Origin: Escherichia coli
GTDB taxonomy: Bacteria; Pseudomonadota; Gammaproteobacteria; Enterobacterales; Enterobacteriaceae
NCBI RefSeq assembly: GCF_003334385.1
Contig: NZ_QOWN01000190.1
DNA length: 363 bases
Direction: 5' to 3' (one strand)
The position numbers were made by a program, and so were the translations under genes. Below, one piece after another: positions 1 to 363 of this stretch (positions are counted from its first letter, which is position 1; each line of letters starts with the position of its first letter). The notes below the pieces were generated by a model. The model made no database searches, was not told the origin of the DNA, and was given only the letters and a program-made list of their open reading frames with translations.

Positions 1-363
1 CTGCCTGATGGTGTGGAGACATACGGGGTGTGGGGACTCTCCCTGCCGTCACTGCGCCGTCGCCTGTTCCGCTGTGTGGCCATCCGGGAAAACACGGACG
101 GCACCTTTGCCATCACGGCGGTGCAGCACGTACCGGAAAAAGAAGCCATCGTGGATAACGGTGCCCGCTTTGAGCCGCAGTCAGGCTCCCTGAACAGCGT
201 CATCCCACCGGCAGTGCAGCACCTGACGGTGGAGGTGAGCGCAGCTGACAGCCAGTATCTGGCGCTGGCGAAATGGGACACGCCGAGGGTGGTGAAGGGC
301 GTGCGCTTCAGTCTGCGCCTGACCAGTGGAAGCGGTGAGAACAGCCGCCTGCTGACCACCGCC
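1..363 (+). CDS. J: Internal fragment (both ends outside the window) of a lambdoid-phage host specificity protein J homologue (tail tip attachment protein), central region upstream of the C-terminal receptor-binding part
   Basis: Seen in sequence: frame +1 is open across all 121 codons; third-position GC is about 77% against about 64% overall; CTG, GTG, CGC and GCC codons dominate, as in enterobacterial coding sequence. Recognition from memory: the translation aligns colinearly with the lambda J segment I recall as ...PDGVAEYSVWELKLPTLRQRLFRCVSIRENDDGTYAITAVQHVPEKEAIVDNGAHFDG...PPAVQHLTAEV...WDTPKVVKGVSFLLRLT..., including an identical block AITAVQHVPEKEAIVDNGA. Not verified by any search. 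Confidence 0.87.
   Translation, partial: MPDGVETYGVWGLSLPSLRRRLFRCVAIRENTDGTFAITAVQHVPEKEAIVDNGARFEPQSGSLNSVIPPAVQHLTVEVSAADSQYLALAKWDTPRVVKGVRFSLRLTSGSGENSRLLTTA
1..363. mobile_element. Part of a lambdoid phage or prophage tail-gene module; only context is implied, and no element boundary lies in the window
   Basis: Inference from the J-like CDS: J homologues occur in the late structural operon of lambdoid phages and prophages. No att site, integrase or element end is visible, so phage genome versus integrated prophage cannot be distinguished. Confidence 0.7.

Follow-up and report, generated by a model that had tools for sequence, protein, structure and literature searches.

The stretch of DNA analysed here, 363 nucleotides in length and called the window throughout, is almost certainly an internal 121-codon piece of the tail tip J gene carried by a lambda-like siphophage, or a prophage of that type, in Escherichia coli; by homology with lambda, the protein segment that it encodes would belong to the hinge and gate of the tail tip. 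By every feature testable here it is a member of the lambda TipJ family, and it is already known, being identical to deposited and correctly annotated genes. The first-pass annotation had taken the window to be phage tail structural DNA coding for a J-family tail tip protein, and BLASTP, profile searches and the flanking genes all agree. Its further view, that this is a known gene family and not a novel system, is borne out by the match of all 363 nucleotides, at 100% identity, to J genes that are already annotated. The window hides neither a second gene nor an RNA element, and no new system, and we found no evidence contradicting its explanation as a J fragment.

Coding frame and selection

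Frame +1 had been described as uninterrupted, and it is indeed open, with no stops in the 121 codons of the window; the same frame stays open along the whole 1176-codon J gene of the STEC17-183 prophage. Frames +2, +3, -1 and -3 contain 6, 5, 2 and 3 stops, respectively, within the window. The GC content of the window is 64% (66% at first, 50% at second and 77% at third codon positions), a base composition of the coding type. The features assigned to the window, all on the plus strand, are the following.

1..363, plus strand: internal fragment of the J gene (tail tip attachment / host specificity protein), codons 549-669; based on frame +1, identity, profiles and dN/dS
1..63, plus strand: putative C-terminal end of the beta-sandwich (OB) domain inserted in hub domain IV, residues 549-569 (window residues 1-21); based on the 1:1 alignment with lambda
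64..90, plus strand: predicted hub domain IV strand corresponding to lambda beta25, residues 570-578 (LFRCVAIRE; window residues 22-30); 8 of 9 residues identical to lambda
91..180, plus strand: predicted linker from the hub to FNIII-1 (long loop and short helix), residues ~579-608 (window residues ~31-60); boundaries approximate
181..363, plus strand: predicted FNIII-1 (Ig-like / fibronectin type III), first 60 of 104 positions, residues 609-669 (window residues 61-121); based on Pfam PF24421

The window was compared codon by codon with five homologues by the Nei-Gojobori method, which gave dN/dS values of 0.15 for JLK-2012, 0.25 for PPompW_699, 0.31 for Stx2c_2409, 0.17 for Gifsy-2 and 0.26 for lambda. 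Third codon positions hold most of the differences (for example 6, 1 and 12, or 31, 24 and 68, at positions 1, 2 and 3). This third-position bias, together with dN/dS values of 0.15-0.31, indicates that frame +1 is the frame under purifying selection.

Family membership and likeness to lambda J

When the proposed profile searches were run, Ig_J, lambda_TipJ and the PHROG J families all matched. Residues 61-120 of the window align with positions 1-60 of the 104 of the Pfam model Ig_J (PF24421; E 1.3e-18), so that the end of the window cuts FNIII-1 short and about the first 60% of this domain is encoded. The NCBIfam model lambda_TipJ (NF049904) scores 225.9 bits against the 121-residue translation (E 6.6e-67, profile positions 549-670); its curated cut-off of 1950 bits applies to a whole protein, for which a 121-residue fragment alone is too short. 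The parent protein, encoded at 7357-10884 of the STEC17-183 locus, scores 2124.6 bits against the same model and passes. Furthermore, the PHROG families of tail fibre, host specificity and central tail fibre J proteins match the window with E values from 1e-46 to 1e-73. The parent protein has five Pfam domains, arranged in the same order as in lambda:

FNIII-A_GpJ, parent residues 86-207, E<=1.7e-29
Phage-tail_3, parent residues 331-492, E<=1.7e-29
Ig_J, parent residues 609-712, E 7e-40
Ig_J_second, parent residues 714-816, E<=1.7e-29
Phage_Tail_Tip, parent residues 871-997, E<=1.7e-29

The BLASTP comparison called for by the first-pass annotation was made against lambda J (NC_001416, 15505-18903; the protein that we take to be UniProt P03749). 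The window translation aligns with residues 549-671 of lambda J with an E value of 7e-54, 83 identities in 123 positions (67%) and 80% positives, very near the two-thirds identity that had been estimated. There are two gaps of one residue each; relative to lambda gpJ, the window lineage has a one-residue deletion past the linker and a second one in FNIII-1. The alignment runs from window residue 1 to 121, which agrees with the proposed colinearity with the central region of lambda J. Six blocks had been named as identical in the two proteins; the window has all six, each is found a single time in lambda J, and their order is kept:

LFRCV: window residue 22, lambda J residue 570
IREN: window residue 28, lambda J residue 576
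AITAVQHVPEKEAIVDNGA: window residue 37, lambda J residue 585
PPAVQHLT: window residue 69, lambda J residue 618
WDTP: window residue 92, lambda J residue 641
VVKGV: window residue 97, lambda J residue 646

The third of these is a block of 19 residues, identical in lambda, that lies in the linker. Over their whole length the parent protein and lambda gpJ have 62% amino-acid identity, against 67% within the window, and they have in common the family, the residue coordinates 549-671, the order of Pfam domains and the gene neighbourhood. Counted per 50 residues, identity is highest in the hub (70-88%), with 48% in residues 501-550 and 80% in residues 551-600. Lambda gpJ is also the protein for which structures have been solved (PDB 8IYK, 8IYL, 8K35, 8XCG, 8XCI and 9E7M). 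PDB chains named 'Tip attachment protein J' (8IYK and relatives, and 9E7M) match the window at E values of about 1e-47 over residues 549-670, and the F2-pyocin tail fibre is a more distant match among the solved chains.

Identical copies and gene neighbourhood

A megablast search of the phage collection found 153 records that match the window. Two of them, Escherichia phages PhiR12_2 (PV340550) and PhiR12_5 (PV340554), are identical to it over all 363 bases, and the annotation beneath the match is 'tail tip host specificity protein J' in both. Another 118 records, mostly of Stx-converting phages, have 90-99% identity, and the lambda-type records fall in the 60-80% band of DNA identity and represent a different lineage. 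Prophages of E. coli STEC17-183 (NZ_CP075652) and JNEC-KY177 are likewise 100% identical to the window, with the annotation 'gpJ: phage attachment tail tip protein J'. The word 'diverged', which the first-pass annotation had applied to the window, is thus right relative to lambda and not otherwise, because this J lineage is common and annotated: 120 phage records have at least 90% DNA identity to the window, and 3134 of 5426 complete E. coli genomes contain a match, the median number of places per genome being 2 and the highest 13.

The four identical copies (PhiR12_2, PhiR12_5, STEC17-183 and JNEC-KY177) show no differences in the window, whereas J elsewhere differs by about 1.6-2.3% among these records. 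Within the window, J genes of Stx-converting and other lambdoid prophages (BP-4795, JLK-2012, Stx2a_WGPS2 and PPompW_699), annotated as tail fibre or host specificity protein J, are 90-96% identical as DNA and 92-95% identical in amino acids, and their few substitutions are mostly synonymous (dN/dS 0.15-0.25).

In both PhiR12_2 and STEC17-183 the window occupies positions 9001-9363 of the locus and J starts at 7357, which places 1644 bases, or 548 codons, ahead of the window and in phase with it. The window translation begins at residue 549 of the 1176-residue STEC17-183 protein (WP_215735927.1), and all four identical records have the window in phase within an annotated J gene. Examination of the flanks of the identical copies, another of the proposed checks, found the expected tail-assembly genes upstream, as homologues of Z-U-V-G-T-H-M-L-K-I, and side tail fibre genes downstream of J. 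The order H-M-L-K-I-J-side fibre, found in PV340550, NZ_CP075652 and PV340554, is that of lambda. The first-pass annotation had also named the results that would speak against it, and none occurred: J hits were obtained, the best hits were not to an unrelated family, and no in-frame stops appeared in the flanks along the full STEC17-183 gene.

Split J genes and alternative readings

J is annotated in two pieces in both phages that are identical to the window, at 7357-10221 and 10395-10886 in PhiR12_2, and at 7357-10281 and 10359-10886 in PhiR12_5. The frameshift that splits these genes lies about 400 codons downstream of the window, and consists of a single-base deletion near position 10190 of the PhiR12_2 locus and near position 10243 of the PhiR12_5 locus, a G6 run being shortened to G5 in one phage and a C6 run to C5 in the other. 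Each of these sites is intact in the other PhiR12 phage, the J gene of STEC17-183 is intact with its 1176 codons, and in the sister phages PhiR12_1, _4 and _2_star the J annotation reaches the C-terminus. Because the deletions affect different homopolymers, each of them intact in the other phage, the frameshifts in PhiR12_2 and PhiR12_5 are probably sequencing errors. Were the window derived from a split copy of this kind, a genuine frameshift could make the gene defective, and the receptor-binding end would then form an ORF of its own.

These split annotations bear on the reading of the window as a piece of a J pseudogene that has decayed and lost its function within the remnant of a cryptic prophage. 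In favour of this reading, J-like copies number 2 per E. coli genome at the median and 13 at most, many prophages are defective, and both phage records at 100% identity carry J in two pieces. However, purifying selection acts on the window, which is itself intact, the identical J of STEC17-183 is complete, with 1176 codons inside a full tail module, and the frameshift pattern of PhiR12_2 and PhiR12_5 is typical of sequencing error, with the J genes of their three sister phages annotated through the C-terminus. Furthermore, PhiR12_2 and PhiR12_5 were deposited as phage genomes with named hosts, and are presumably plaque-forming isolates. We therefore regard a pseudogene as improbable. Still less probable, by a small step, is that the window stems from a split copy of this sort, that the frameshift (near codon 950-975) is real and that an infective tail tip is nevertheless assembled from two polypeptides, one with the hub and FNIII part and the other with the receptor-binding part. 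Were this so, the arrangement would be like that of the separate pb3, pb4 and pb5 of T5, and the window would still be ordinary J coding sequence.

A second gene could in principle lie antisense to J, given that frame -2 (minus strand, window 1-362) has no stops in its 120 codons and that an ORF of 201 codons on the minus strand of the PhiR12_2 locus, at 8811-9416, spans the window. This frame, however, has its third codon positions in common with the sense frame, in a GC-rich region (64%, and 77% at third positions), and it stays open in 26% of synonymous re-codings with J gene codon usage and in 38% of synonymous permutations within the window. In four of the five homologues (JLK-2012, with 95% amino-acid identity, Stx2c_2409, Gifsy-2 and lambda) it contains a stop, its translation matched no PHROG family, and the substitution pattern agrees with selection on the sense frame. 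The shared third positions, the chance openness of 26-38%, the stops in homologues and the missing PHROG match are our reasons for concluding that frame -2 is not a gene, and we rejected the antisense gene as a candidate, its probability being negligible: the openness is expected by chance, is broken in relatives and goes with no family match. A structured RNA or regulatory element within the coding sequence was given an equally negligible probability and rejected. It would draw on a minus-strand hairpin of terminator type at 114..97 (a stem of 7 pairs with a T-rich tail behind it; one found against 0.1 expected in shuffles) and on an imperfect direct repeat of 21 nucleotides, with copies at 116-136 and 209-229 of the window. 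One such hairpin is nonetheless nothing unusual for 363 GC-rich bases, the Rfam scan of the window returned no family at E values up to 1, and the scan for promoter-like sites found none in the window. The two copies of the repeat, 81% identical and 93 nucleotides apart, code for TAVQHVP and PAVQHLT, so that the peptide motif AVQH is encoded twice, and both copies of the motif are kept in the lambda protein; the nucleotide repeat may be due to chance. The only other internal repeat in the window is one of 11 nucleotides, and internal repeats were set aside as a feature, since their significance is limited to the protein sequence.

Position of the window in the tail tip and its proposed role

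The results described above show directly which frame of the window is coding, to which family and which part of the protein it belongs, in what gene context it lies and that it is under purifying selection; its inner division was taken from the lambda tail tip. In lambda the inserted beta-sandwich comprises residues 483-569 and lies in HDIV ahead of beta25 (570-578) (PMC10721106), and a linker from the hub to the first fibronectin-type domain has been described (PMC10721106, PMC11101478). The segment assignments and the linker boundaries given for the window are transferred by homology from these descriptions and should be read as predictions; for the linker, the downstream limit is the start of Pfam Ig_J at window residue 61, and the upstream limit is inferred. 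On this division, the encoded stretch would open with the closing part of the inserted beta-sandwich, take in the last hub strand and the long linker, and break off within the first fibronectin-type domain.

Further on, lambda gpJ has a helix bundle, the central fibre and then the receptor-binding domain (PMC10721106, PMC11101478), and the tube is closed by three FNIII strings (PMC11101478). On binding of LamB the helix bundle is rearranged, and the FNIII strings part from one another and come to lie, on the elongated linker, at right angles to the hub; outward rotation of the hub domains then gives a channel of about 3 nm (PMC11101478). By homology with lambda, three copies of the J protein considered here, together with gpL, would form the hub, a cone by which the tail tube is shut at its end and which bears the central fibre. 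Binding of an outer-membrane receptor by the C-terminal receptor-binding domain would send a twist up the fibre, and the fibronectin strings would then separate and swing out on the linker, so that the hub may open for DNA ejection. That J is a trimer here, that it gates the tube by such a motion and that the linker plays this part is likely by extension from lambda, at 67% identity.

A comparable organization is found in T5, where the baseplate hub protein pb3 (PDB 7ZQB, cited in PMC10721106) likewise has hub domains, a linker and two FNIII domains that move on receptor binding. A sequence-level match between T5 pb3 and the window was not detected. Furthermore, in T5 the HDI domain lies within pb3 and the fibre and receptor-binding protein are separate (pb4 and pb5), and the FNIII strings leave the cone unclosed, unlike those of lambda (PMC10721106).

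The window was also considered as an attachment site for side tail fibres, and this was rejected: in the part of the Ur-lambda account available to us the collar binds gpV and gpM, and that part describes no contact with gpJ here. Since the window corresponds to the hinge between hub and fibre and not to the receptor-binding end, it is uninformative on host range. It is to be filed as tail structural DNA of a lambdoid phage or prophage of Escherichia coli, and its value is one of bookkeeping only.

The receptor-binding end of the parent protein

The C-terminal 176 residues of the parent protein (STEC17-183 locus 10357-10884), which lie beyond the window, have about 30% identity to lambda, and only the first 67 of them can be aligned with it (lambda 975-1042); over the last 130 residues of the protein, identity to lambda is about 25% or less. 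In the phage collection this C-terminus is common to only the five PhiR12 phages, at 96% identity, the next best match being lambda at about 30%. The receptor of lambda is LamB (PMC11101478); with a C-terminal identity to lambda of about 30%, the use of LamB is therefore not to be assumed for the parent J.

Additional observations on the related loci

A full-text literature search on the PhiR12 phages returned only unrelated papers. The J gene of Stx2c_2409 (locus 301-669, against window 1-363) is a mosaic, the 5' part (to about alignment column 165) being of the window lineage and the 3' part nearly base-identical to lambda. The crossover lies near window 145-165, within a near-invariant stretch that codes for EKEAIVDNGA in the hub-to-FNIII linker; lambdoid tail genes are known to be mosaic, and this case agrees with that. 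In STEC17-183, the prophage with the identical J adjoins a 5'-truncated ydfJ (locus 16278-17561), the gene at which we take Qin to be integrated in E. coli K-12, and this suggests that the STEC17-183 prophage uses the Qin site. In PhiR12_2, two genes on the minus strand at locus 12827-15108, noted as transposase/integrase and ATP-binding transposition helper, lie amid fragments annotated as side tail fibre genes, and the pair looks like an IS21-type insertion that breaks the side fibre region. Finally, PhiR12_5 has four extra genes between L and K (locus 3720-5732) that are missing in PhiR12_2 and STEC17-183: two small hypothetical genes on the minus strand, and on the plus strand one small ORF and one gene noted as an antirepressor.
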